A stretch of DNA of 64,000 bases from Thermodesulfobacteriota bacterium (GCA_964291405.2 OZ219926.1:1120001-1184000), one strand, 5' to 3'; counted from the first letter of the stretch, positions 1-57,249 are shown. The notes: generated by a model not told the origin, from the sequence alone. Program-made: numbers and translations.

Positions 1-218
1 ATAATAATATCGCGCAGGGTAATGGACGGCAGATTGAGATTCGTCAGCTTCCCGGCCAAAAGATAGCTCAGCGCTTCCTCCAGTGAGGAGTGATTCAGAA
101 TAATCGAGTGTAAAAAGCTCGCCAGCACCGGCTCGCGGTCGGCTTCCAGCGCGGCTTCGTCTCGAATGGCTTGCCAGACCCAGTCGTCAGATGTTTGGTG
201 TTGCTCAACGGCGCGCAT
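1..218 (-). CDS. cysE: Serine O-acetyltransferase, N-terminal part (runs off window start)
   Basis: Manual translation from ATG at 218: MRAVEQHQTSDDWVWQAIRDEAALEADREPVLASFLHSIILNHSSLEEALSYLLAGKL..., the CysE N-terminal helical domain pattern (EPxLASFxHxxILxHxxLxxALSY); GGAGG RBS upstream. Not in the ORF track because it is truncated. Confidence 0.9.
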   Translation of the reverse strand, partial: MRAVEQHQTSDDWVWQAIRDEAALEADREPVLASFLHSIILNHSSLEEALSYLLAGKLTNLNLPSITLRDII

Positions 219-242
219 GCAGGTCCTCCCGAGAAAACTTTC

Positions 243-251
243 TGGTATAAT
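243..251 (+). promoter_or_regulatory. Putative extended -10 promoter element (TGnTATAAT) for the LOG operon
   Basis: TGGTATAAT in the cysE/LOG divergent intergenic region, about 85 bp upstream of the ATG at 336. Confidence 0.4.
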
Positions 252-335
252 CAGGCTTTCTCCTTGCCTAGGCTTTTCCTCTACACGGAACGGCGAGGAA
301 GAACAACATGATAGTACGAATATGGGATACGCTGT

Positions 336-887
336 ATGAAACGTCTCTGTGTTTTTACCGGGTCGTACCTGGGCGCCCGACCGGAATATCTCTCGGCCGC
401 CCAAGCACTTGGCAGAGAACTGGCCACCCGGGGCCTCGAACTGGTCTACGGAGGAGCGCATATCGGTCTCATGGGCGCGCTGGCTGACACTGTCCTGGCC
501 GAGAACGGGCGGGTGATCGGCGTCATTCCCGACACGCTGGTTGACCGTGAGGTGGCTCATCATGGTCTCTCGGAACTCCACGTGGTCGGCTCCATGCATG
601 AGCGCAAGGCGAAAATGGCCGAACTCGCCGACGGGGTGATCGCCCTGCCCGGTGGCATTGGCACACTGGAGGAATTGTTTGAAGCCCTCACCTGGCGGGC
701 GTTGAATATCCACGCCAAGCCCTGCGGCCTGCTGAACATCAATCATTACTACGATCTGCTGCTTCAATTCTTGCAGCACAGCGTGAATGAGCAGTTTTTG
801 AAAGCGCAGTATCGCGCCCTGCTGCTGGTTGAAGAACATCCAGGCAAGCTCCTTGATCACTTGGAACAACAAGAGGGCTCACCATGA
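336..887 (+). CDS. LOG family nucleotide phosphoribohydrolase (TIGR00730-like)
   Basis: LVYGG, GLMG, MHERK and PGGIGTLEE motifs. Confidence 0.92.
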
Positions 888-1249
888 CGCATACGCCCAT
901 CAATCTGACGCAAAAACTCACCACGTTCTCAGACCATTGGTCCCCCAAAATCGTCGCCCGGATGAACGACTATCATCTCAAGCTGGTCAAACTCAAAGGC
1001 GATTTTGTCTGGCACAGGCATGTTGAGACGGACGAAGTCTTTCTTGTTCTACAGGGATCGATGCGGATTGATTTTCGGGATGGCAGCGTTGAGCTGAGGG
1101 CGGGAGAAATGTTTGTTGTGCCGAAAGGCGTCGAGCATAAACCGTGGGCCGAAAAGGAATGTCATGTCCTGCTGGTTGAGCCCGCCGGCACGGTCAATAC
1201 AGGCGACGCCGGTGGCGCCTTGACCGCCGATGATGATAGTTGGGTCTAG
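884..1249 (+). CDS. Cupin domain protein
   Basis: WSPKIVA, [17 protein letters not shown] and [14 protein letters not shown] cupin motifs; ATGA overlap with upstream gene. Confidence 0.9.
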
Positions 1250-1258
1250 GAGCCCCCT

Positions 1259-1744
1259 ATGTCTACCGTCACCGTTGTTGAAGCGGACTTGCATCGGCCC
1301 GATCACCAAGAGGCAGTCCTCCAGCTCGTGAACAATTACGCCCGCGATCCGATGGGCAATAGTCAAGACCTGCCGCAAGACGTGTGCACTCGCCTTATTC
1401 CAGGCCTACAGGCCCACCCGACAACGTTGATTTTCCTGGCCTATCGAGGAGACGAAGCCGTGGGGATTGCCGTGTGTTTCCGGGGTTTCTCCACCTTTGC
1501 TGCGAAACCGCTGATAAACATCCACGACTTGGCGGTAAATCCGGACTGTCGTGGACAAGGCATCGGGCGCTTATTATTACAGCACGTAGAACACACGGCA
1601 CGTGAGTTGGGCTGCTGTAAGCTGACATTGGAAGTACAACTCAATAATACGGTTGCCCAAGGATTGTATTTGGGTGTCGGCTTTATTCGAGCGACCTATG
1701 ATCCGGAGGCTGGACAGGTTCTTTTTCTGCAAAAGCCGCTGTGA
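1259..1744 (+). CDS. GNAT family N-acetyltransferase
   Basis: NIHDLAV..CRGQGIGR acetyl-CoA motif, CKLTLEV, AxxLY..GF. Confidence 0.9.
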   Translation: MSTVTVVEADLHRPDHQEAVLQLVNNYARDPMGNSQDLPQDVCTRLIPGLQAHPTTLIFLAYRGDEAVGIAVCFRGFSTFAAKPLINIHDLAVNPDCRGQGIGRLLLQHVEHTARELGCCKLTLEVQLNNTVAQGLYLGVGFIRATYDPEAGQVLFLQKPL

Positions 1745-1862
1745 CACAATTCTTCTTTCATCGAGCAGTACGAAAAAGATGGCGAACACGAGATGGAGGC
1801 ATAGACGACCGTCCCGATTGCGTGCTTGACTCCCTCATCACAGCGGTCTACTCCTCAGAAGG

Positions 1863-2096
1863 ATGAAAACAATCTCGATTGCCGTGGACGAGCACTTGCT
1901 CGAACAGATTGATACCCTTGCCCAGGCTAGACACAAGAAGCGAGCTGAGTTGTTCAGTGAAGCCGTTCGCCAGTGGCTCAAACAGCAGCAGCTCAAAGCA
2001 CTCGTAAAACAGGACCGCCAGGGCTATCGCAAAAAACCTGTCCAAGCCGATGAATTTGGGCCTCTCCTCCGCGCCCAACAGTGGGAGAAAATGTGA
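1863..2096 (+). CDS. Ribbon-helix-helix (CopG-like) antitoxin
   Basis: MKTISIAVDEHLLEQID...RAELFSEAV RHH pattern; overlaps the start of the toxin gene. Confidence 0.8.
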   Translation: MKTISIAVDEHLLEQIDTLAQARHKKRAELFSEAVRQWLKQQQLKALVKQDRQGYRKKPVQADEFGPLLRAQQWEKM

Positions 2097-2410
2097 GGCG
2101 CGGTGAGATTTGGAATTTTCGTTTTGACAGACCGGACAAACAACGTCCGGTACTTATCCTGACTCGCCAAGAGATCATTCCCGTGCTGCATACGGTCACA
2201 GTGGCACCCCTCACAACTACAATTCGAGGCGTGCCGAGTGAAGTCGTGCTCGGTCCTGAAGCTGGTCTTAAAACTCAATCCGCCATCAATCTCCACCATC
2301 TGGTTACTGTTCCAAAGTCTCAACTTAGGCGCTTTGTCGGAACTGTTTCTCCTGCAACACTCCAACGCGTCAAGGAGGCTATGCTCTTCGCTCTAGGTTT
2401 TGACGATTAG
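2093..2410 (+). CDS. mazF: MazF/PemK family endoribonuclease toxin
   Basis: RRGEIW...DKQRPVLILTR...VTVAPLTT..RGVPSEV; GTGA overlap with antitoxin, start taken at GTG 2093. Confidence 0.88.
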   Translation: MRRGEIWNFRFDRPDKQRPVLILTRQEIIPVLHTVTVAPLTTTIRGVPSEVVLGPEAGLKTQSAINLHHLVTVPKSQLRRFVGTVSPATLQRVKEAMLFALGFDD

Positions 2411-2471
2411 CCGACGGGGCCGGCGGGGTATGCCCTGCGCCTCACAGGCGACTTGCAGTTGCGATTCTCAC

Positions 2472-2978
2472 ATGGACACTCCGCCGCCGGACTACTATTA
2501 CCGCAACTTCCCTTCCCAGGTCCTGCCTGCCCGAACGCCGTTTACCCGTGTCGGTCGGGGGGATGCCGGACTCTTGTTTATTTATGTCTCCAATCGCCGC
2601 CAACGCTGGAGCGTCTTACTCGACAAGAAGCAGGTGGAGCACATCTATCCGGAAGCACGCAAGCAGATTCCGCCCGGCTTCGCGCACGTCTGGTTGTTGG
2701 AAAAATGCTATAGTACGCGCCCTGCCGGTTTCCACACACGGACAAAACACGCCTCTCCGCTCCGCCAGCCCGCTCACGGAGACCGCACCCCGGTCACCGG
2801 ACTGGGAGAGTCGTTCATTCTCTTAGCCGAACCATCTCCCGCGCCCGGCGTGCAGGGCGACGTCCTGTCCTACCACTTGCAGGAAGGGGCTGCTATCGAG
2901 GCGGCCGAAGAATACACCAAACGGTTCCACCGTCGCGCCGTGGTGGGTTTGCTGGTGTGGGACGATTATTGGTTCTAG
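2472..2978 (+). CDS. Hypothetical protein
   Basis: Open frame 2400-2978, most plausible ATG at 2472 (MDTPPPDYYY...); protein-like composition, no family recognised. Confidence 0.5.
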   Translation: MDTPPPDYYYRNFPSQVLPARTPFTRVGRGDAGLLFIYVSNRRQRWSVLLDKKQVEHIYPEARKQIPPGFAHVWLLEKCYSTRPAGFHTRTKHASPLRQPAHGDRTPVTGLGESFILLAEPSPAPGVQGDVLSYHLQEGAAIEAAEEYTKRFHRRAVVGLLVWDDYWF

Positions 2979-3002
2979 CGTGTTTCACGATCAGTTGTAG
3001 CC
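2975..3002 (+). repeat. Isolated end of the CTAG-bounded MITE-like element family
   Basis: CTAGCGTGTTTCACGATCAGTTGTAGCC matches the left end of the element at 36520 (CTAGAGCGTTTTACTATAGGCTGTAGCC) at 21 of 28 positions. Confidence 0.5.
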
Positions 3003-3215
3003 ATTCAGCCGTTCGTGTGGGAGCTGCCAGCGGAGGGAGGGATTCTGACACCGGAGGGCCATCGCATTCCAGGCCCAGCCCTGAGCACGGCAACGGTGAT
3101 CGCGGCGATACCCCGTAGGCTTGTCACGAACATGTTCCACTCCTCCTCTTCCCCTGCCGCCTCTCCACCCCCTGCCGTGCTTTTGCTGTCGCAGCAGGAG
3201 GGCAGCGTGGTTTTG

Positions 3216-3309
3216 TGATCACCAGCCCCAACCGCACCACGTTCGCCTGCTGGGTGATGCCTTGCTTGCGGTCAATCTGCTTCAGGGACCAATAGCCGGA
3301 GACTGCCAT
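3216..3309 (-). pseudogene. Relic of the C-terminal HTH of a LuxR-type regulator
   Basis: YWSLKQIDRKQGITQQANVVRLGL aligns with HWHLGQMYHKLGLTRQADLVRLVL at the end of the adjacent LuxR gene. Confidence 0.55.
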
Positions 3310-3384
3310 ACGTCCCGGCGGCCCGCGCTGGCCAGGCCACCAAGGGCGGGCCCTGGGGGGCAGCCGGCCCTACCGCGCTCAGGC

Positions 3385-4512
3385 TCACTCGGCGAGCGAC
3401 AGCACCAGGCGCACCAGATCCGCCTGCCGGGTAAGGCCGAGCTTGTGGTACATCTGCCCCAGGTGCCAGTGGATGGATTTTTCCCGTAGCCCCGTCGCCG
3501 CGGCTATCTCGCGCACGCTCTTGCCTTCCGCCAACCACACCGCCACCTGGCTCTCCGTCGGCGAGAGCTCCAGGGCCGCAGCCACCAGCATCGGATCGAG
3601 GCGGGACTGGCGGCCCGGCTCGGCGATCAGCACCAGCGCGGCGACCCGCTGCGCCCCAAAGTCTGGCCGCCGGACGACCACGGGTTTGACGTGCACCACG
3701 AGCGGCGGCCCCACGGCCGCACGCCGGAGCAGCATCGACCCACTGAGGGCGCTCCCGGCAGTCGGCAACGCCTGAGCCACGAGGCGCGCCAGCCGGGCTT
3801 GGTCGGCCGGGGCGCGGGCCCGCAGTTCGCCGTCCCGGTCGAACACGCCATCGCCATGGCGCAGCAGGGCCCGGGCGCGGTCATTCGCCTCCACGATCCG
3901 CCCCCGCCGGTCCAGGTAGAGGACGCCCATCCGCGGCGTGTCGAGCAGCCCGGCCGCCGACACGCCCTGCGCCTCGGCTTTGGCCAGCGTCTGCTGAACC
4001 CGGACAAATTGGCGAATATGGGGCAGCAGCCCCTGAAGTAGCGCCAGTTGCGGCCCTTCCCAGCCCCCCGGGCCGACCGGGTCAGCGGTAGCCCAGGTGA
4101 TATGGGAGCCGTCCGGCCCGTCCAGACGGACATTCAAGCTGTCCTGGCTGCTGGCCCGGAGCATCGACTCGTTGTAGGCAGGCGAGGTCTGCAACTCCTC
4201 GGCCGTGTACAGGTCGGTGATGTGGACCACGCGGCTGTCAGGCAGGCGCCGTACGCGCGGCACGCGCTCGTCGATGGGGTGATAGAGGGTGAGGTATTCG
4301 CGCTCCAGGTCTTCGCGGCGCTCCCCCCGGTAGTGGGCCTGGGCGAAAAGGACTCGGACATCGTCCTTGGGGCCGGCGCCGACCAGCAGGCCATTCCCTT
4401 GCATACCACAGGCCTCATCGATCAGGGCGGAGGTGACCGACCACAGGGTCTCGTCGAGCATAGTCTCGTATAAAGAGGCCAGGATCCGTTCAAACACGTC
4501 TTGGTCACTCAT
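3385..4512 (-). CDS. LuxR-type HTH transcriptional regulator with N-terminal sensor and PAS-like regions
   Basis: C-terminal LSPTESQVAVWLAEGKSVREIA...QADLVRLV; central LDRRGRIVEANDRA PAS-like segment; start at MSDQD. Confidence 0.88.
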   Translation of the reverse strand: MSDQDVFERILASLYETMLDETLWSVTSALIDEACGMQGNGLLVGAGPKDDVRVLFAQAHYRGERREDLEREYLTLYHPIDERVPRVRRLPDSRVVHITDLYTAEELQTSPAYNESMLRASSQDSLNVRLDGPDGSHITWATADPVGPGGWEGPQLALLQGLLPHIRQFVRVQQTLAKAEAQGVSAAGLLDTPRMGVLYLDRRGRIVEANDRARALLRHGDGVFDRDGELRARAPADQARLARLVAQALPTAGSALSGSMLLRRAAVGPPLVVHVKPVVVRRPDFGAQRVAALVLIAEPGRQSRLDPMLVAAALELSPTESQVAVWLAEGKSVREIAAATGLREKSIHWHLGQMYHKLGLTRQADLVRLVLSLAE

Positions 4513-5080
4513 ACCGTTGCTTCCTGCATTGCGTGCACACACGCCTCTTCCGGTTCACCCTACACGATCGCCCAGCTCCTCTCACCGAGAAAATTACTGG
4601 TTTCCTACATAATATCAGCAGATATTTTCATAAAATAATAAAGAGGGCCGGATAAAGCCCACCGATAACGCCGGGTGGCGGGGATGAAAAAGTGACGCGG
4701 CAGCGCGCTCAATCCGTCGAGCCCGGCCCGGCGCCCCGCTGCGGGGTCTTCCCCTGCTCCCAGAAGGTACTGACAAACCTTGTAAGACTACCTGGTAGTT
4801 TTCCCAGAGTAAAACACCCCGAGATGGTGTATAGGAGCGTTTCACATGCGTGGACGCCGGCCAGGCACCGGACGGCGGTCCCTGGAGAGGGGGGGGGCTG
4901 TGGAGACGCGAGGAATCTTGGGGGGAGCGGGCCGGGGGCAACCAGGTAGAGGCCGGCGGCGCCATGCGGCTGTTGGACAGCGAGACGACGGCGGCAATCT
5001 CGATTCCCGGCGACGGGAAGACGGGCATCGTTGAGATTAATCAGACAAAATGACGTGCAGCGCAGAACGGAGGAGCGCAC

Positions 5081-5617
5081 ATGAGACAGCATACGGATCG
5101 ACGGATGACTTTGTGGGAGGCACGGCGGGTTTTGCTCCTCCATCTCTGTCTGGGGTTGGTGGTCTTGGCGTCGTCTCTGGCACAGGCCGCCTCGCTGGAG
5201 AATCCGAGTGGGGGGCTGTTTTATTCGGGCGTGGGAGTCATCTCGGGCTGGAAGTGTGAAGCCAACGGGGAGCTCACCGTGCGCTTTAACGGGGGAGAGC
5301 CGGTTCCCCTGGTGTACGGCAGCGAGCGGCCCGATGTTCTCGACGCCGGGGCGTGTGCCAGCGCCGATGTCGGCTTTGTGGCTATCTGGAACTGGGCGCG
5401 GCTCGGGGATGGGACCCATACGGCCGTGGCCTACGATGATGGGGAGGAGTTTGCCCGCAGCACGTTTCAGGTCGCCACCCTCGTGGAAGGTGAGGACTTT
5501 GTCCGAGGGATAAGTGGCCGCTTTCGGGCGCGGGACTTTCCGGACCCGGGGGTGAATGTGCTGCTGCGCTGGAATCAGAATGTGCAGGGGTTTGTGATTG
5601 AGGGCGTGGAAGAGTAA
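5081..5617 (+). CDS. Secreted hypothetical protein, beta-rich single domain
   Basis: GGAGGAG RBS; signal peptide ending AQA; mature ASLENPSGG..SGVGVISGWKCE..GFVAIWNWARLGDGTHTAVAY; two Cys in the mature part. Confidence 0.8.
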   Translation: MRQHTDRRMTLWEARRVLLLHLCLGLVVLASSLAQAASLENPSGGLFYSGVGVISGWKCEANGELTVRFNGGEPVPLVYGSERPDVLDAGACASADVGFVAIWNWARLGDGTHTAVAYDDGEEFARSTFQVATLVEGEDFVRGISGRFRARDFPDPGVNVLLRWNQNVQGFVIEGVEE

Positions 5618-5636
5618 CGGGCCACAGGAGGGCCGC

Positions 5637-8600
5637 ATGAAGAAGCTAAGCACCATCCTGCGTCTCCTGCTCCTAATCGTCCTCCTTGGCTGGACGGGAG
5701 TTATTACACAGCCCGCCTCAGCCCAACAGACCGTCACCCTGTCCGGGCGGGTCACCGACGCTGCCGGCAATGCCGTCTCGGGCGCAACCGTGAATCTGGA
5801 AGACCCCGGCTGGGTTGGACAGGAGACGGACGCGAATGGCAACTATCGCCTCTCGGTGGCCCCGAGGACCTACCGTCTGCGGGTGCGGCCTCGGCACGGT
5901 CCACTCATTGCCCAAAAGATCGAAGGGCTGCGGCTCTCAATGAATACCACCCGCAACTTTGTTTTGGAGGAAGGGGTGACGCTGTCGGGACAGGTCACTG
6001 CCAATGGGCAGCCGGTACCCCATCCGTGGCTGTGGGTCGTAAACGACGAGGGTCAAGAGGTCAGTTTCAATTCTGCGAATGCCTCCGGCCACTACAGTCT
6101 GGGGGTGCCTACCGGGACCTATAAGGTCAACGTGTATAGCGAAGACTTCTTGGGCACGACCGTGGAGGGGGTGGCGATAACCCAGGACACCGTCCTCAAC
6201 ATCACCCTGGAATCCGGCGTACTGCTGGAAGGCACAGTGGTGGACGACGCTGGCCAGCCCGTGCCGGACGCTCAGGTGTGTGCCCGCCTGCCGACCGAGC
6301 GACCGTATGGGCACACCTGTTCTGAGGCCGATCCTGGAGGCCGCTTTCAACTCAGTGTCGCTCCGGAGGTGTATGTCGTTACGGCCACTCCATTAGCCCC
6401 GCTCCACCCGACCCGGCATCGCCTGGAGGTCAGCGGAGCGGGAGTGACAGACCTTGTGCTGACAGTGAGTCGGGACCCCACGCCGTTTGTGCCTGACGAC
6501 CCCCCCAAGGCCGCGCTTATCAGTATCTCCCCGCCTCCGGTGGACGGCGAGGTGACGGTAACCGGAGCGGCCGGTTCCGTTGCACCGCACAGCACGGTCG
6601 TCGCTACGACTCTGGAGACCGGGACCTTTACCACTGCGCAGGCTACGGCCAGTGGAAGCTTTACCGCCAGAGTGTTCGCCCCGGCCAGCACGTCTGTCCT
6701 CATCAAAGCTGACCCGTTCGGTCCGAGCGTGGCGCAGTTTTTACCTGCCCCTGGCGATGAGACCGACCATCCGATTCGACTGAGCAACGGAGAGCAGGGT
6801 GGCAGTCACACGGCGCTCGCAGGCCTCTCCGGAACGATTCTCCGCGTGGCCGACCCCTCAGGCGCAGGCATTCCGAGCGGCGGGGCAGGGCGGATCTATT
6901 GGGACCGGCTTCCCGCTTGGACTTTCCAGGGCTCCATCAATACCCAGACCCTGGCCCCCGGTGATCCGCTACAGGTCCGCGGTAGGGTCCAGATAGATTC
7001 ACCAGCCTTACAGGGGGTCAGCGCGCTCCAGGTGGTTACACGCCTCGAGCTTGAGCGGCTCTCCGACACCGATGGATCGAGTATCCTCCGCCGCAACACT
7101 TTTGCATCTACCTTCGTCACCCCTACCGGGCTACCGATTGAACGGGAGCCTCGGTCTTGGAATGCTGGCTTAAGCCAATTCCAAGACGCACCTTTGGTCA
7201 AAACGTCTTCCACTCAGGCCGAAGCAGAGGTTAATCTGACCCTCGCCCTGCCGCCAGACTTGCCTGCCGGATATTATCGTCCATTTCTTGATTTTGACCT
7301 TCCTGAGATACCACAGGAAGAGCCTCCTAGCCATTCAATTCTTACGCTGACACACTCACCGCGCCGAAGTTCGCCACTCGAAGCCCGCCTGCCGATTATC
7401 CAGGTGGGGAGTCCAGCCCAACCACGCCTGTATTGGACTCTCTTCTTCGACACGCTCAGTAACGGGTCGCGGGGGGTCGTGGCCGTGGAAGACGCCGACC
7501 GTTTTGGCATCGCCCAACGGATTCTCACCTCGTCGGAAACATTTGTGATCCCGCGGCTGGGGATGGCCTCGGGCCAGCCTCTGACCTATCGCCTTGAACC
7601 GTTTGTCCCGACGGTGTCCATTGCCAACGGCGCGCAAGGGAATCTCCCCACCCCGCCTCGCATCCCCTTCCAGTTCCCCTCCGGAAGTCTCACCGTCACG
7701 ATTCACCGCCCCGATGGGACCGAAACGGTTCTGGGACCCGCCCCGTTCGTGCAGCCGCGGCTGAAGAGCCTCGTGGACGACGAGGGCGATCTCTTAGATT
7801 TAGGTGGGGGCCATATCACCAATGCCTACCAACTCAGCACGATGGACCCCCGCTTTGAAGTTTCCTTTGCTCAAGACGGCCTGCACGTCATTACCGTCGA
7901 GGGGACGATTGACGACATCTGGGGGAATACCTGGACCGGAGGTGGGACCTACGAGGTCCAGGTTGGTCGGGTTCTGGCTCTGGATACCGCCGTGCTACCC
8001 GGCACCCACTTTGAGGTGGGCGATGGCTTCAACCCAGGCTTAGTAGTCTCTCCACCGATGACGGCCGAGGTGGAGGTCCGACTTCAGCACATCCCTCACT
8101 CGGATGTCAGCCAGCTCCAGGAGCAGGTGATCCGAGGCCGGACGAACCGCTTTGGATATTTTCAACCGGCGGGCAACAGTGTGATATTCGAGCAGCCGGG
8201 CGAGTACCGGGTGGATATCACGGTACGGGGTCGGGATGACCGGGGGCAACTGTGGATGGGCTCCCGTACTTGGGGCGGCATCGTGGCCCCCATCAATCCC
8301 ACTATCGTCGCCCACGGGCGGCGGGGTATTGATGACCAGGACACGATTGGACCGCAGTGGTTCACGCGTGACCAGATCGGCATTCCGGTTGGTGGAAGCC
8401 ATGTGCACTTTCCCTTTCAGTCCGGCGATGTCACCTGGCTCGAAAATGCAGACGCCTCCATCCCACTCCTGACCTTTCATGACCCGAGCCGCCAGCTCAC
8501 CGAGCTTCTGCGGCCAAGAGCAGACACGATTCCTCTCGGATTTGGCGCCGGTAGCTTTGCGGAGCGCGTCGTGGTGGGCGAAACCCCCCTGTTCCTCAGT

Positions 8601-47504: not shown

Positions 47505-49193
47505 GTGAAAGGAAAAGATGTGGCACGGGGACAAAAGCAGAAGAGACAAGACGATCACTCGCAGGACACCCATGACGCGACGACCGGCTATGAGGCCCAA
47601 CTCTGGGCCATGGCCGACGCCCTGCGCGGCAGCATGGACGCCGCGGAGTACAAGCATGTCGTTCTCGGTCTGATCTTTCTGAAATACATCTCCGACGCCT
47701 TCGAGGAGATGCACGCCCGTCTCGAAGGTGAACAGGATCAGGGCGCCGACCCCGAGGACCCGGACGAGTATCGCGCCGAGAATATCTTCTGGGTGCCGCC
47801 CGAGGCTCGCTGGACGCAGCTCAAGGCCCAGGCACGGCAAGCCACCATCGGCCAACTCGTCGATACCGCCATGACCGGTATTGAGCGCGACAACCCGGCA
47901 CTCAAGGACGTACTGCCCAAGGACTATGCCCGCCCGGCGCTCGACAAGCAGCGGCTCGGCCAGCTCATCGACCTCATCAGCAATATCCAGGTCGGCGACG
48001 CGGAAGCCCGCTCCAAGGACGTGCTGGGCCGCGTTTACGAATACTTTCTGTCGCAGTTCGCCAGCGCCGAGGGCAAGAAGGGCGGCGAGTTCTACACCCC
48101 GCGCTGCGTGGTCACGCTGTTGGTCGAGATGCTGGAGCCCTATCAAGGCCGGGTCTATGACCCCTGCTGTGGCTCCTCCGGCATGTTCGTGCAGTCGGTC
48201 GCCTTCATCCGTGCCCATCAATCCGGCAACGGTAATGGTGGCAGCGCCCCACAGGCCACCAGGGCCGACATCTCGATTTATGGCCAGGAGTCCAACTACA
48301 CCACCTGGCGGCTGGCAAAGATGAACCTCGCCATTCGCGGCATCGAGGGCCAGATCGCCCACGGCGACACCTTCCACAACGACCGCCATCCCGACCTCAA
48401 GGCCGACTTCATCCTAGCCAACCCGCCCTTCAATATCTCCGACTGGGGCGGCGAACGGCTAACCGAGGACAAGCGCTGGCAGTACGGCACCCCACCCAAG
48501 GGCAATGCTAACTTCGCTTGGGTGCAGCATATCGTCCACCATTTGGCACCGGTCGGTACGGCCGGCTTCGTACTCGCCAATGGCTCCATGTCGTCCAACC
48601 AGTCGGGCGAGGGCGCTATCAGAAAAAGTCTGATCGAAGCTAGCCTGGTGGACTGTATGGTGGCGCTCCCCGGCCAACTCTTCTATTCAACTCAAATCCC
48701 GGCCTGCCTGTGGTTCCTGGCCCGCAACCGCAGGAACCGGCAGTCCAGCGGCCGGCGCGGCGAAATCCTGTTCATCGACGCCCGTAAACTCGGTCGCATG
48801 GTGGACCGCACCCACCGCGAACTGACCGCCGCCGACATCGCCCGCATCGCCGACACCTACCATGCTTGGCGCAATCACCCTCCTTCCCCCTCGCAAGGCG
48901 AGCCCCATCCTACCCCCTCTCCCTCGAAGGGAGAGGGCCGGGGTGAGGGTGCCGCCGTCTATGCCGACATCCCCGGCTTCTGCAAGAGTGCATCCCTGGC
49001 AGACGTACGCAAGCACGGCTATGTGCTGACCCCCGGTCGCTATGTCGGCGCGGAAGCACGAGAGGACGACGGCGAGCCGTTCGAGGACAAGATGAAACGG
49101 CTGGTAGCAGAGTTACGCATGCAGCAGGCCGAGTCTGCGAAGCTGGACGTGGCTATCGAGGCCAACCTGAAGGAGCTTGGATTTGGTGGGTGA
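47505..49193 (+). CDS. hsdM: Type I restriction-modification methyltransferase subunit
   Basis: [39 protein letters not shown]. Confidence 0.95.
48876..48950. repeat. In-frame palindromic insertion in hsdM
   Basis: Encodes [25 protein letters not shown]; hairpin CCCTCTCCCT-CGA-AGGGAGAGGG followed by CCGGGGTGAGGG. Confidence 0.7.
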
Positions 49194-50568
49194 CACCGCG
49201 AATCTCCGGTCGTTGCTTATCCACACGCGCGATGGTGAGTGGGGAGTCGCCAAGCCTGACGACGGTCTTGTTCCCGTACATGTCATCCGAGGCACCGATT
49301 TCGAGCCCGTTCGACGGGGCGACCTAACAACGATCCCAACTCGATACCTGCCGGCCGAACACAGAGCGAGAAAGGCGTTAAGACCGGGCGACATTCTTAT
49401 TGAGACTGCCGGAGGCTCAAAGGGTCGTCCGACTGGCCGTACTTTACTCATTCAGGCGCGTACATTGGAAGGCACCGAAATTCCTTTCACCTGTGCAAGC
49501 TTTGCTCGGTTCCTTCGTGTAGATGAAGCCCGCATCAATGCTCCATATTTGTACTGGTTTCTCCAGTATCTCTACCAGATTGGGGAGATGGAACAGCATC
49601 AGGTTCAACACACAGGTATCGCTAGATTTCAGTTCACTAGATTTGCTGAAGAAATTCAGGTCCCTCTGCCACCCCTCCCTGAACAACGCACCATCGCCCA
49701 CATCCTCGGCACCCTGGACGACAAGATCGAACTCAACCGCCGCATGAACGAAACGCTCGAAGAGATGGCGCGGGCGCTATTCAAGAGTTGGTTTGTGGAC
49801 TTCGATCCCGTCCATGCCAAAGCCACCCTCAGAAACCACACTCCTAATCACTCCCCCCTTGATTGGACTGTGGAACGGGCTCGGGCGTATCTTGACGGGA
49901 TGGACTCAGACATTGTCGCATTGTTCCCTGATAGTTTTGTCGATTCGGAGTTGGGGGAGATACCGGAGGGGTGGGGAGTTGGAAAATTGAAGGATGCGGT
50001 GGATCAACTCCGTGACAAAGAGAACCCGCTTACGTCACCGAGTGCTTCCTTCAGCCATTTTAGTATTCCTGCTTATGATGAGGGGCAAACACCGAAGCAG
50101 GAGCTAGGTGGAAGTATCAAAAGTACAAAGACACGGGTGTGTCCTGGCGTCGTCCTTTTGTCCAAGCTCAACCCAGAGATTGAAAGGGTTTGGTTAGTGG
50201 ATGTATCGCCCGATGACCAAGCAGTCTGTTCGACTGAGTTCTTGGTTCTCCGTACCAAACCGCCTTTTCACCGCAGCTATGTCTACTGCCTACTGCGTAC
50301 CTCTCTTTTCCGGCAGCAGATTAAATCACTTGTTACAGGGACATCTAAGAGCCACCAACGCGCCCAAGCGGAAGCCGTCCTAGACCTCCCCATAGTCTTT
50401 CCACCGGGGGCTCTCATAGATTCGTTCGAGAAGGTCGCCGAAAATTTTCTAAGTAAAACACTGAATTGTCGCTCCGCATCCCGCGCTCTCGCCACCCTAC
50501 GGGATGCACTACTACCCAAGCTCGTTTCTGGCGAGCTACGGGTAAAAAGTCAGAAACAGTATGATTGA
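49186..50568 (+). CDS. hsdS: Type I restriction-modification specificity subunit
   Basis: Two TRDs separated by [44 protein letters not shown]; ends [19 protein letters not shown]. Confidence 0.93.
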
Positions 50569-52300
50569 TCCGATCCATTCACTCGCATTTTCCATTCAGG
50601 CAAATCGAGGCGTTTATGCCGCCCTTGTCGGCTCAGGTATATCCAGGGCGGCAGAAATTCCGACCGGTTGGGAAATAACGCTAGGCTTGGTTCATGGGCT
50701 TGCAGCTCTCCAAAACAATACAGCGGAGCCCGACCCTGAGACTTGGTATCGGGAACAGTTCGGGAGAGAGCCGGACTATTCCGATCTCCTTGAAAATCTC
50801 GCCAGGACGCCCGCCGAGCGGCAACAATTGTTACGCAGCTATTGGGAGCCGAATGAACAGGAGCGTGCCGAAGGGAAGAAGCAGCCAACCGCAGCACACC
50901 ACGCTATCGCTGCATTGGTGGCTCAAGGATTCATAAAGGTCATCATTACCACAAATTTTGACCGCCTGATGGAAAGCGCCTTGCGTGACGCTGGAGTTGA
51001 GCCAACTGTTCTGAGTTCACCAGATCACGTCCAAGGGATGCTACCGCTTATCCACACTCAGTGCTGCGTTCTCAAGCTCCATGGCGACTATCTCGACACG
51101 CGTATTCGCAATACGCCCAGCGAACTCGAAGCATACCCCGAGGAATTCGACCAACTCCTTGATCGTATCTTCGATGAGTTTGGTCTTATTATCTGCGGCT
51201 GGTCAGCTACCTGGGACAATGCGTTGCGTAACGCAATCGAGCGCTGCCCATCCCGGCGGTTTACGACCTATTGGGCGGTACGTGGCGAGCCCAGCGATGA
51301 GGCTCATCGGCTGATTAACCATCGTGGTGCTGAAGTGATCAGTATTGAGGAAGCCGACACGTTCTTTCAAACCGTTCAGCAACACGTCGAGTCCATCGAA
51401 GAGTTTTCGAGGCCCCATCCCCTTTCAACCGAAGCCGCAGTGGCAAGCTTAAAGCGCTATCTCTCTGAGTCCAGATATCGGATTCAGCTTTCGGACCTCA
51501 TTGACGAAACAGTGGATAGAATTATCGAGGCGACCTCCGGCGAGGCTTATTCCGTTCAAGGCATACCTATAAATACAGAATCAGCGACGGCCCGTGTACG
51601 CGGCTACGAAGCGGCGTGTTCGACATTACTGGCAATGGCACCGGTCGGAGGGTTTTGGGCAGAAGAGGGACACTATCATGTTTGGCAACGAGCACTGGAG
51701 CGTTTATCCCCAGTTAATAGTAATGGTTCTCCATTTTGGTTGAGCTTGCAATGCTATCCAGGAACACTGCTGCTTTACGCCTTGGGCCTCGGTGTGGTTA
51801 AGGCACATCGATTGGAATTCCTTGAACGCCTCTTCGCAACTATGATCCACAGGGAACATCGTGAGGCGATTGCTGCCGTGCAACTACTTCCCCCATTCTG
51901 CTTATTCAGTGTGCATAGCCAAGGCGGCCAGGCTGCTCAAATATTAGAAGGTATGGAAAGAAATTATGTACCGCTGAACATCTGGTTGTATAACGCACTA
52001 AGACAGTATGCAAAGCGAATCATCCCTAGCGATGATGAGTATATGTTGGTCTTCGATAAGCTCGAAATTCTTATCGCGCTTGGATATGCGTACCGAGAGC
52101 GTCTTAATTGGGTTCCAAGGGGAGTATTTATTTACCGAGATGAGAACAGACATCGAGTTTTACAAGAGATCAAGGAATCTACATCGGCACTCCAGGAGCA
52201 ATCGCCGTTTGTGAAAAGCGGTATTTTTGGTGAAACTGTTGAGCAATGCTCGCAAAGCTTGAAATTTTTCAACGTATCTCTCGCGCGAGCCCATCGGTGA
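50561..52300 (+). CDS. SIR2-like domain protein (putative NADase) with an unassigned helical C-terminal half
   Basis: LVGSGISRAAEIPTGW, IITTNFD, LKLHGD, IICGWS; start overlaps hsdS end. Confidence 0.87.
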   Translation: MIDPIHSLAFSIQANRGVYAALVGSGISRAAEIPTGWEITLGLVHGLAALQNNTAEPDPETWYREQFGREPDYSDLLENLARTPAERQQLLRSYWEPNEQERAEGKKQPTAAHHAIAALVAQGFIKVIITTNFDRLMESALRDAGVEPTVLSSPDHVQGMLPLIHTQCCVLKLHGDYLDTRIRNTPSELEAYPEEFDQLLDRIFDEFGLIICGWSATWDNALRNAIERCPSRRFTTYWAVRGEPSDEAHRLINHRGAEVISIEEADTFFQTVQQHVESIEEFSRPHPLSTEAAVASLKRYLSESRYRIQLSDLIDETVDRIIEATSGEAYSVQGIPINTESATARVRGYEAACSTLLAMAPVGGFWAEEGHYHVWQRALERLSPVNSNGSPFWLSLQCYPGTLLLYALGLGVVKAHRLEFLERLFATMIHREHREAIAAVQLLPPFCLFSVHSQGGQAAQILEGMERNYVPLNIWLYNALRQYAKRIIPSDDEYMLVFDKLEILIALGYAYRERLNWVPRGVFIYRDENRHRVLQEIKESTSALQEQSPFVKSGIFGETVEQCSQSLKFFNVSLARAHR

Positions 52301-52339
52301 TGATGGGAGTAAAGTTTTCACCGTGAAGGAGGTTGAGTA

Positions 52340-52729
52340 GTGGCAATGAAACGCGCATTTATCAGTTTTGACTTCGACCATGACGAGGAACTGAGAAATG
52401 CTTTGGTTGGTCAGGCAAAAAATCCAGATTCACCATTTACTATCGCGGATTGGTCGGTAAAGGAGCCATTCACCGGGGATTGGAGAGGGAAGGTTCGCGA
52501 CCGAATACGCAGAACCGACCTGACCATTGTCATCTGTGGACGGTACACACATACCGCCAAAGGGGTTGCTGCCGAGTTGAGCATCACCCGTGAGGAAAAC
52601 AAACCTTACTTTCTACTAAAGGGGCGCCCTGATTACACTTGTACTAAGCCTGACATGGCCCGTCGTTCAGACAAGATTTATAGATGGACATGGGAAAATC
52701 TGAGACGGCTGATTCGCGGAGAGAGATAG
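52340..52729 (+). CDS. Stand-alone TIR domain protein (ThsB/MTH538/DUF1863-like)
   Basis: KRAFISFDFDHD, DWSVKE, W...VRDRIRRTDLTIVICG..T..AKGVAAEL with the catalytic-position Glu, C-terminal WTWENL. Confidence 0.85.
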   Translation: MAMKRAFISFDFDHDEELRNALVGQAKNPDSPFTIADWSVKEPFTGDWRGKVRDRIRRTDLTIVICGRYTHTAKGVAAELSITREENKPYFLLKGRPDYTCTKPDMARRSDKIYRWTWENLRRLIRGER

Positions 52730-52733
52730 CCTG

Positions 52734-53237
52734 ATGTCCCAGCAGTCGAATGGGCGTTTGGTTAATTACACGAAAGAGACGTATGGAGATTCCTTCGGCA
52801 CGGACCTTCTTGAGCAATATAAAATATACGTGCAGTCAGCCGAGAATGTCAGCGCGCGCCGGGTGGCTTCGAGTCGCTATCTCCTCACACTCAACATCGC
52901 GCTCGTGACTCTCTACGGCATTCAATCTGAGGGGTTCGTTCAGAGCTATTGGGCGATACTGGTTCCAATACTCGGCATCCTAGTCTCTTTGCTTTGGTAC
53001 CAGATCATCAAGTCTCACAGTGATCTGAATACCGTCAAATTCAAGATAATCCACCAACTTGAAGAGCATTTGCCAGTTGCGCTGTATGCCTATGAGTGGC
53101 AGTTGGCCGGAGAGGGGCGCGGGACATCCTATAGTGCCGTCACTCACATAGAAAAGTGGATTCCGAGAGTCTTTATTGCCCTCCACAGCATTCTCTTTAT
53201 CTCACCGTTTTTGGTAAAGAGCGACTTCCTGATTTGA
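52734..53237 (+). CDS. Small membrane protein, candidate pore-forming defence effector
   Basis: LLEQYKIYVQSAENVSARR, TM hairpin (YLLTLNIALVTLYG; WAILVPILGILVSLLW), LNTVKFKII..LE..LP..LY..EW, third hydrophobic segment at the C-terminus; resembles, from memory, the family annotated as RipA-like octameric membrane protein. Confidence 0.7.
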   Translation: MSQQSNGRLVNYTKETYGDSFGTDLLEQYKIYVQSAENVSARRVASSRYLLTLNIALVTLYGIQSEGFVQSYWAILVPILGILVSLLWYQIIKSHSDLNTVKFKIIHQLEEHLPVALYAYEWQLAGEGRGTSYSAVTHIEKWIPRVFIALHSILFISPFLVKSDFLI

Positions 53238-53330
53238 CTACAATAATCACCTGCCCCGAATCCACCCTCGAAACAACGTCCAACATGGTCTATACTGGAC
53301 CACTATCGCTTAGTTGCCGGAGGTGTGACC

Positions 53331-53606
53331 ATGGAAGTCTCCAAACCCCAGCGTGTATGGACTGTTGCCGAAGCGAAGGCCCGTCTGTCCGAGGTCTTGC
53401 GGCTGGCCGAGACGGAAGGGCCGCAGCGCATAGGTACCCGGCGTCCGTTCGTTGTGGTGCCCGCCGAGGCGTGGGACGCGAAAACGCCGCCGCGTAAGCC
53501 CTTTGGCCAGTGGCTCATAGAGAACGTACCACGCGGCACCAATCTTGAGGTGCCGGAGCGGAGCTCCAATCGCCCGATTCCCTTCATTGACGAAGAAGAC
53601 GAATGA
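53331..53606 (+). CDS. Phd/YefM family antitoxin
   Basis: WTVAEAKARLSEVLRLAETEGPQRI. Confidence 0.87.
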   Translation: MEVSKPQRVWTVAEAKARLSEVLRLAETEGPQRIGTRRPFVVVPAEAWDAKTPPRKPFGQWLIENVPRGTNLEVPERSSNRPIPFIDEEDE

Positions 53607-54018
53607 CTGGCTACCTTCTGGATACCAACGTAATCTCGGAGTTGACGCGGAACATTCCAGACCCCCGGGTTGTGGACTTTCTGGCCGAGCGAGACGATGT
53701 ATGGGTGTCGTCTGTCCTCATCCATGAAGTAGAATACGGATTACGGTTGCTCCCACAGGGAATCCGCCGCAATCGGCTGTCTACCATGCAAGCAGCCATT
53801 CTTTCGGGATACGCCCATCACATACTGCCATTGGACAGGGCAGGGGCCGAGTGGGCCGCCGAGTTTCGGGCGAACGCCCGGCGCTCTGGATATACGATCG
53901 ACGTGGGCGACGCCTTGGTCGCCGGAATAGCCCGAGCCAATACCCTCACCGTCGCCACTCGGAACGTCGCCGATTTCCGGCCCTTCAACGTCGCAGTCAT
54001 CAATCCCTGGGAAACGTC

Positions 54019-54022
<4 letters not shown>
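53603..54022 (+). CDS. vapC: VapC/PIN domain toxin
   Basis: [11 protein letters not shown]...HEVEYG...DALVAGIA....[10 protein letters not shown]...INPW. Confidence 0.92.

Positions 54023-57249
<3,227 letters not shown>

Follow-up and report, generated by a model that had tools for sequence, protein, structure and literature searches.

What might a minimal TIR protein act upon when its only constant neighbor is a small membrane protein that carries no recognizable sensor domain? The question is raised by a locus within 64,000 nucleotides of DNA from a Thermodesulfobacteriota bacterium (GCA_964291405.2 OZ219926.1:1120001-1184000; this whole stretch is the window, and coordinates are 1-based from its start). 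A preliminary description of this DNA had proposed that a 129-amino acid TIR protein with a glutamate at the catalytic position is encoded 4 nucleotides upstream of a 167-amino acid membrane protein, and we confirmed both open reading frames (ORFs), their common strand, and the glutamate (Glu79). We suggest, with a probability of roughly 0.55 and on comparison with known systems, that the pair constitutes a self-contained Thoeris-type anti-phage module, in which the TIR protein would provide a signal and the membrane protein, a member of the 8xMP family, would serve as the membrane effector.

A Conserved Two-Gene Module

Relatives of the membrane protein numbered 347 in a contig scan with one genome per species; the counts given below for 80 loci refer to the best 80 of these 347. 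According to record titles, these loci belong to Dehalococcoidia (46), Binatia (8), other Chloroflexota labels (7), Caldilineaceae (6), Alphaproteobacteria (5), Latescibacterota (3), Nitrospirales (2), Gammaproteobacteria (1), Actinomycetes (1), and Nitrosopumilus (1), spanning at least eight phyla-level labels and including one archaeon. At all 80 loci, a TIR match ends no more than 60 nucleotides upstream of the membrane protein gene, which bears out the earlier description of the two genes as a pair and makes the pair a fixed one. The TIR is full length at 76 of the loci, with at least 110 of its 129 amino acids covered. The other four have a short TIR, with 109 amino acids aligned at L019, two overlapping pieces at L042 (probably a frameshift), and only the C-terminal part at L073. 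The fourth is L080, in which the TIR (3059-3334 and 5884-5994) is split by an insertion of ~2.5 kb containing a 536-amino acid ORF with no Pfam match. Across the 80 loci, both genes show conservation at 45-90% identity, which is far beyond chance.

The two proteins do not track each other closely in sequence. Faster evolution of the TIR protein than of the membrane protein was considered and is not supported, as mean pairwise identities are 0.636 versus 0.637. The identity matrices of the two, compared for the window together with 71 loci (2556 pairs; nine loci were left out as short or shifted), are weakly correlated (r = 0.34), and among the 122 pairs with membrane protein identity of at least 80%, TIR identity falls below 70% in 43. 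This weak correlation indicates that TIR and membrane protein variants reassort. A second TIR gene occurs upstream at 10 of the 80 loci, with a single membrane protein gene at each save L045. This last locus, in a Latescibacterota record, has two complete TIR-membrane protein pairs in tandem (4336-5181 and 5607-6486), whose TIRs share 75% and 59% identity with that of the window.

No constant third gene was seen near the pair upon inspection of the loci without restriction genes and of the gaps between hsdS and the TIR gene, and this lack of a recurring partner indicates that the pair comes without a gene for a soluble sensor. Fusions between TIR and 8xMP were likewise not found, with no TIR domain in the 14 long or extended representatives scanned. 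A search for longer 8xMP proteins produced four matches, three of which are read-throughs into HsdR N-terminal domains. Database proteins P0271-P0273 (391-698 amino acids) consist of 8xMP joined to HsdR N-terminal domains and probably reflect read-through by gene calling across an overlapping stop and start.

The pair is also found on plasmids, both from cultured bacteria and from a haloarchaeon. An annotated TIR lies directly upstream of the membrane protein gene in six of the eight plasmid records inspected, those of Haematospirillum, Synechococcus (S. elongatus IITB6), Polaromonas (sp. H8N, plasmid pH8NP2), Clostridium perfringens, the haloarchaeon Halorubrum, and Novosphingobium, and no annotated TIR is directly upstream in those of Leptolyngbya and Streptomyces. 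The two genes are a real, tightly conserved, and horizontally mobile module.

TIR Protein

The TIR protein matches the Pfam family ThsB_TIR (PF08937; E 3.5e-8, 34.2 bits versus a cut-off of 21.2), and Pfam detects no domain of its own for phage sensing. Its structural model, for which a 37-sequence alignment was the input, has a TIR-like flavodoxin fold (predicted local distance difference test score, pLDDT, 89.9). The closest solved structure is a Bacillus cereus TIR (BcTir, 8fz9; template modeling score 0.72-0.74, 25% identity), followed by the TIRs of SARM1, ThsB, and SPARTA and, more remotely, by DNPH1/MilB-type glycosidases. The only sequence match to the TIR protein in the Protein Data Bank is also 8fz9 (E 0.002). 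BcTir is similarly a minimal TIR (138 amino acids) in a two-gene defense operon, that of BcTir/Tpr, but it is partnered by a soluble MilB-like glycosidase-TPR protein rather than a membrane protein.

Glu79 is invariant in the aligned homologues (37/37) and is aligned with Glu82 of 8fz9. Its spacing after the central strand is presumably the same as that of the catalytic glutamate of ThsB. Judged by the alignment to 8fz9 and by what is known of ThsB, Glu79 appears to occupy the ThsB catalytic position.

A TIR protein this small, with no phage-sensing domain and encoded in such tight spacing to its partner, both in the window and across the 80 loci, might instead be the killing component. The membrane protein ring would then be a sensor or scaffold for envelope or injection stress that clusters the TIR protein, which would kill by depleting NAD+, with no diffusible signal being made. 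Many bacterial TIRs are NAD+-depleting effectors that are activated by oligomerization. The contexts listed in one preprint are those of CBASS, Pycsar, and pAgo (10.64898/2025.12.03.692087). However, the free reassortment of TIR and membrane protein variants is harder to square with a co-adapted physical interface, the second TIRs at some loci recall the multiplicity of ThsB, and the scanned representatives contain no fusion of the two. We consider this reversal of roles rather unlikely.

Membrane Protein

The membrane protein is a full-length match to the Pfam family 8xMP (PF24838), far over the curated cut-off (profile positions 1-133 of 136; E 9.1e-36, 123.1 bits versus a cut-off of 30). 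A profile scan of its own genome gave 123.2 bits. PF24838 was present in all of the 120 homologues listed among 937 found. Atlas clusters bearing PF24838 are automatically named 'RipA family octameric membrane protein', in keeping with the likeness to the RipA-like family suggested in the preliminary description; 'octameric' here is the label of the family. No NCBIfam family was matched at E ≤ 0.1, and the library possibly lacks a RipA-family model. As had been noted before, no soluble sensor domain is recognizable in the membrane protein by Pfam, NCBIfam, or PADLOC.

Hydropathy and an all-helical model identify three hydrophobic helices. As to the transmembrane hairpin and terminal hydrophobic helix assigned earlier, residues 66-94 and 142-167 reach the threshold of 1.4 in Kyte-Doolittle windows of 19 amino acids, and the hairpin's first helix (~49-63), although hydrophobic, remains below it. 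The predicted layout comprises a cytoplasmic N-terminal helix, a transmembrane hairpin (~49-63 and 72-92), a conserved polar cytoplasmic segment (93-141), and a C-terminal transmembrane helix (142-162). The polar linker motif that had been pointed out in this segment is strongly conserved, with K102, F103, E110, L113, P114, E121, and W122 invariant in 24 of 24 sequences.

No solved 8xMP structure was identified by phmmer or hmmsearch (one chance-level match, E 1.8). Foldseek with the membrane protein model also found no solved relative (best E 0.76), and VIA-align returned only generic helical bundles with Z ≤ 11, a range common for helical models.

TIR-Linked Lineages within the 8xMP Family

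PF24838 is a large family, with 2984 clusters (at 50% identity) matching a profile of the clade at E ≤ 0.001. We sampled 401 genomes of the window's phylum and 401 Chloroflexota genomes. In the former, 18 genomes have a match over the cut-off, and among the 18 genes examined (of 20 matches, two being without a locus) four are linked to a TIR gene (that of the window and L085-L087). Others in this sample have unrelated neighbors, and two are flanked by mnmE and rsmG. In Chloroflexota, 25 genomes have matches, and nine of the 30 matches are TIR-linked as judged by Pfam or tblastn (L114-L121 and L139; the L114 locus is truncated at a contig end, and L118 and L120 are weak cases), the remaining 21 being unlinked. 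It had been stated beforehand that the proposal would be undermined by membrane protein homologues rarely lying beside TIR genes. This does not apply to the present clade, in which pairing is invariable, but it does describe the wider family, in which linkage is the minority condition.

All 13 linked genes in the two samples score at least 99 bits, and only one of the 14 genes examined at that level (L088) has no TIR. A second linked subclade, typified by L085, has the same pairing with a membrane protein 34-39% identical to that of the window and a TIR that is not alignable by BLAST to the window's TIR. In a tree of 42 proteins, whose rows were hand-picked from the loci and in which several unlinked rows are long branches, the window clade had support of 100/100, and the linked lineages were grouped in one half with their mutual relation left open. 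From their sequences, the TIR-linked proteins are specific lineages within PF24838.

Fourteen amino acids are kept in both TIR-linked subclades and not in 23 unlinked 8xMP proteins: L26, E27, K30, S40, R42, R43, S94, N99, K102, F103, L113, W122, G128, and Y133. All of these fall in predicted cytoplasmic parts of the membrane protein.

The abundance of 8xMP genes with no TIR neighbor brings up the possibility that the membrane protein is a RipA-type housekeeping protein of membrane homeostasis that merely adjoins a TIR gene, with no joint function. The genes at L088 and L093 lie between mnmE and rsmG, and Francisella RipA is described as a membrane protein interacting with LpxA (PMC12444477). 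Adjacency at every one of the 80 loci, across phyla and domains and at 45-90% identity, is nevertheless incompatible with a chance neighborhood, as is the pairing of two divergent subclades, and we regard this explanation as very improbable. The longest ORF at L093 is a single 670-amino acid frame that runs through both MnmE and 8xMP, by either fusion or read-through. Our literature search found no paper on 8xMP, PF24838, or the 'RipA family' in defense.

Comparison with Thoeris Systems

The preliminary description took as its premise that TIR signals are read by a dedicated soluble domain such as SLOG or Macro. This premise is now dated. A preprint of December 2025 lists 29 putative Thoeris types, with validation of seven that are new, whose effectors include small multi-transmembrane proteins with predicted pockets between protomers (10.64898/2025.12.03.692087). 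The type V effector ThsF (DUF2270) has three transmembrane helices; a heptameric channel with basic inter-protomer pockets is predicted for it, and its trigger is 3'cADPR (cADPR, cyclic ADP-ribose). Type VII combines the SLATT effector ThsH with the canonical cADPR signal, and the type II effector acts on the membrane (10.64898/2025.12.03.692087). Effectors of this kind remove the paradox of a missing sensor, in that the oligomer itself may form the sensor. The terms '8xMP', 'RipA', and 'PF24838' are absent from the main text of the preprint (10.64898/2025.12.03.692087); its Figure 1C and Table S1 lie outside that check and may list the family.

The window pair most resembles types V and VII. 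As in type V (ThsB and ThsF), it is a two-gene operon of a small TIR protein and a three-transmembrane protein of about 170-200 amino acids that lacks a classical sensor domain, but Pfam finds no match to DUF2270 (PF10028) in the window protein. Alignment by hhalign of 8xMP with 11 DUF2270 domains gave a probability of 0.8% with a narrow profile and 11.8% with a broader one (E 0.0025, 57 columns over the second transmembrane helix and the juxtamembrane helix), a similarity that is suggestive at most. Type VII (ThsB and ThsH) likewise associates TIR with a small multi-transmembrane effector, whereas the window membrane protein has no Pfam SLATT match and aligns by hhalign to SLATT_1 and SLATT_5 with a probability below 1%, the SLATT profiles being thin at three sequences each. 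Kinship of 8xMP to SLATT or DUF2270, which we considered, is not shown by either Pfam or hhalign. At two SLATT_1 loci (L147 and L148), ThsB_TIR genes flank the effector on both sides, which is the type VII layout of the preprint and resembles the extra TIRs of 8xMP loci. On the C. perfringens plasmid (L153; NZ_CP065633.1, 11406-16744), the genes are annotated, in order, as caspase family protein, TIR, 8xMP-like hypothetical protein, and TIR, possibly a Thoeris unit resembling type IV that lies beside the 8xMP gene or shares TIRs with it.

With types I (ThsB and SIR2-SLOG ThsA) and II (TIR and Macro-transmembrane protein), the pair would share the logic of a TIR signal that leads to a killing effector, but by Pfam the membrane protein has neither Macro nor SLOG. 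The putative effector is outside the validated Thoeris families to which it was compared (SIR2-SLOG, Macro-transmembrane, caspase-like, DUF2270, DUF6650, SLATT, and CMP hydrolase-TPR), a comparison that leaves types III, IX, X, and XI uncovered.

Proposed Mechanism

We propose that, on infection, the ThsB-like TIR protein would, by means of Glu79, turn NAD+ into a signal derived from ADP-ribose. The 8xMP membrane protein, presumed to be a ring oligomer, would be the effector and would bind this signal on its conserved basic cytoplasmic face (N-terminal helix 19-47 and segment 93-141). The signal-bound ring would then breach or depolarize the membrane, and the infection would be aborted. In this lineage, the module would be expressed with the type I restriction operon as its last cargo gene pair. 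Strict pairing, extra TIRs, reassortment, and a defense context are together what Thoeris systems show, with the membrane protein taking the place of the effector, and the extra TIRs and reassortment in particular fit interchangeable sensors that feed a common effector. The 14 amino acids specific to linked proteins, which include the basic K30, R42, R43, and K102, are consistent with a sensor formed by the oligomer.

Several observations weigh against this proposal. On the side of the TIR protein, the ThsB_TIR match is of modest strength (34 bits), and the ThsB models of PADLOC match the protein weakly (E 0.005). Its nearest solved relative, BcTir, is reported to be inactive as an NADase, and in the account given there the catalytic glutamate of SARM1 is set opposite a lysine, which places the catalytic position elsewhere (10.1101/2023.05.26.542521). 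This lysine aligns with K41 of the window TIR. On the side of the membrane protein, no PADLOC model matches it, and its monomer model is only of moderate confidence (pLDDT 71). In the two phylum samples together, 13 of the 48 examined 8xMP genes are TIR-linked and 35 have no TIR neighbor, some of them in a housekeeping context as at L088 and L093; this unlinked majority and these contexts imply that the 8xMP fold has uses other than defense. Although linked proteins cluster strongly, the tree leaves open whether TIR linkage arose only once. The groups contrasted for the 14 amino acids were defined by TIR linkage itself, the very feature counted, and with the origin of linkage left open by the tree, shared ancestry could explain the pattern.

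A more specific form of the proposal, which we put forward tentatively and as a possibility, is that 8xMP/RipA-like proteins are ligand-gated rings. In the linked lineages, cytoplasmic pockets between protomers would bind the ADP-ribose derivative made by the TIR protein and thereby open a lethal pore, with K30, R42, R43, N99, K102, W122, and Y133 as candidate pocket residues. As Thoeris effectors, these proteins would be a family separate from both DUF2270 and SLATT. As part of the same tentative scheme, the module would be translationally coupled to hsdR and would be the fixed last member of a slot of swappable defense cargo. By extension, cellular metabolites would gate the RipA-like proteins that have no TIR link.

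Restriction Operon and Defense Cargo

The genomic context goes beyond what the preliminary description covered, as the pair belongs to a type I restriction operon, in which it immediately follows a SIR2 gene. At 48 of the 80 loci, the pair is located between hsdS and hsdR genes related to those of the window, and at 56 at least one window-type restriction gene is nearby. Window-type restriction genes are not found near the pair at the other 24, two of which have other restriction or methylase genes; the neighbors at these loci are heterogeneous (housekeeping genes, transposases, and other defense genes) with no recurrent partner. The gap between hsdS and the TIR gene ranges from 25 to 4577 nucleotides and is filled with variable same-strand cargo: DUF2806, KAP NTPase, PIN_4, KwaB-like, OLD-ATPase with UvrD helicase, SIR2_2, AbiJ, Fic, Dcm with Vsr, DUF4238, DUF4365, trypsin-like, and other TIR proteins. 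More broadly, neighbors of the pair include Kiwa, Gabija-like, AbiE, SIR2, other TIR, and restriction genes. The hsdS-hsdR interval behaves as a slot for exchangeable defense genes, of which the pair is the constant and last member. The HsdR proteins are 65-91% identical across phylum-level labels, which suggests that the whole operon moves horizontally.

The SIR2 gene recurs at three of the 80 loci only and is therefore separate cargo outside the pair. We considered the SIR2 protein as a possible Thoeris effector and rejected this because of its rarity and its lack of a SLOG domain. Compared with type I ThsA, it has no SLOG/STALD match in Pfam, and the match to PADLOC ThsA (E 7e-6) is weak, lies in the SIR2 region, and covers residues 106-178 only. 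It matches the PADLOC candidate system PDC-S65 from end to end, and its C-terminal 300 amino acids have no Pfam domain.

A suicide-type module between hsdS and hsdR recalls PrrC-EcoprrI, although the proteins are unrelated. PrrC is kept inactive by the type I enzyme linked to it, and a phage anti-restriction factor activates it (PMC2610378). The pair could similarly be a guard that is kept silent by HsdMSR and fires once a phage anti-restriction factor disables the enzyme. Besides the shared location, close junctions are in line with such a guard: the start of hsdR is no more than 60 nucleotides from the stop of the membrane protein gene at 21 of the 50 loci that have hsdR downstream of the pair, with an offset of -3 at 10 and an ATGA stop-start overlap in all five inspected. 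The pair is, however, present at the 24 loci without window-type restriction genes, and of the eight plasmid records inspected, only that of Polaromonas has a restriction gene beside the pair, indicating that the pair functions as a unit in the enzyme's absence. The many unrelated defense genes in the interval are also better explained by a hotspot for cargo than by a specific partnership. We find a guard of this kind improbable.

Layout of the Window

The genes of the locus form a same-strand array (Table 1), in which vapBC is an insertion between the pair and hsdR; vapBC is downstream of the pair at 12 of the 80 loci. The longest ORF of hsdR begins at 53851, and alignments of homologues by tblastn begin at residue 57 of this ORF, making a GTG start that overlaps the vapC stop the likely one. 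The G+C content drops to 0.44-0.50 over 52000-53200 from ~0.62 in the flanks. A scan for promoters and terminators gave counts not above those of shuffled sequences.

Table 1. Features of the pair and its operon in the window.
Feature	Coordinates	Strand	Basis
hsdM, type I restriction-modification operon (context)	47505..49193	+	ORF; hsdM 55-92% identical upstream at 34/80 related loci
hsdS (context)	49177..50568	+	ORF; hsdS 5' of the pair at 54/80 related loci
SIR2-domain protein, 579 amino acids, PADLOC candidate single-gene system PDC-S65	50561..52300	+	PADLOC PDLC05061, E 2.9e-215; Pfam SIR2_2
Shine-Dalgarno-like AAGGAGG	52326..52332	+	7 nucleotides 5' of the TIR start codon, seen in the sequence
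ThsB-type minimal TIR gene, 129 amino acids, GTG start, Glu79	52340..52729	+	ORF; Pfam PF08937; model; alignment
8xMP/RipA-like membrane protein gene, 167 amino acids, proposed effector	52734..53237	+	ORF; Pfam PF24838; hydropathy; all-helical model
vapB, Phd/YefM-type antitoxin	53325..53606	+	Pfam; NCBIfam
vapC, PIN toxin	53603..54022	+	Pfam; NCBIfam
hsdR	54019..57249 (likely GTG start 54019)	+	ORF; tblastn of homologues

The adjoining vapBC genes raise the question of whether the pair itself is a toxin-antitoxin-like addiction or stabilization module, in which the TIR protein would neutralize a toxic membrane protein and there would be no dedicated phage sensing. Toxicity is common among small membrane proteins, and on the Haematospirillum plasmid the pair is found among toxin-antitoxin and partition genes. 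The invariant glutamate at the catalytic position and the ThsB-type fold point to enzymatic action and not to simple neutralization, however, and tandem divergent TIRs are atypical of antitoxins. Given also the defense-rich context, we judge such a module to be quite unlikely.

Beyond the window, the same genome has a second ThsB_TIR gene (119 amino acids, E 4.7e-19), which is directly 3' of an ORF for a 160-amino acid soluble helical protein without a Pfam match (L082, 989-1833). These two may be another TIR pair.

Implications

The logic of Thoeris-type TIR signaling is already known, and the pair is best read as an instance of it in which 8xMP, as the putative membrane effector, would be the new element. 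If this is correct, 8xMP would add a further effector family to TIR signaling immunity, and interest in it would be higher still if the membrane ring is a ligand-gated pore. The hsdS-hsdR slot, with the pair as its constant member, bears on how defense islands are assembled and how they move between phyla. The occurrence of the same pair in bacteria and archaea offers a conserved putative signal-effector couple that is open to study across domains. For the widespread 8xMP/RipA-like membrane proteins, the proposal, if true, would provide a first functional handle.

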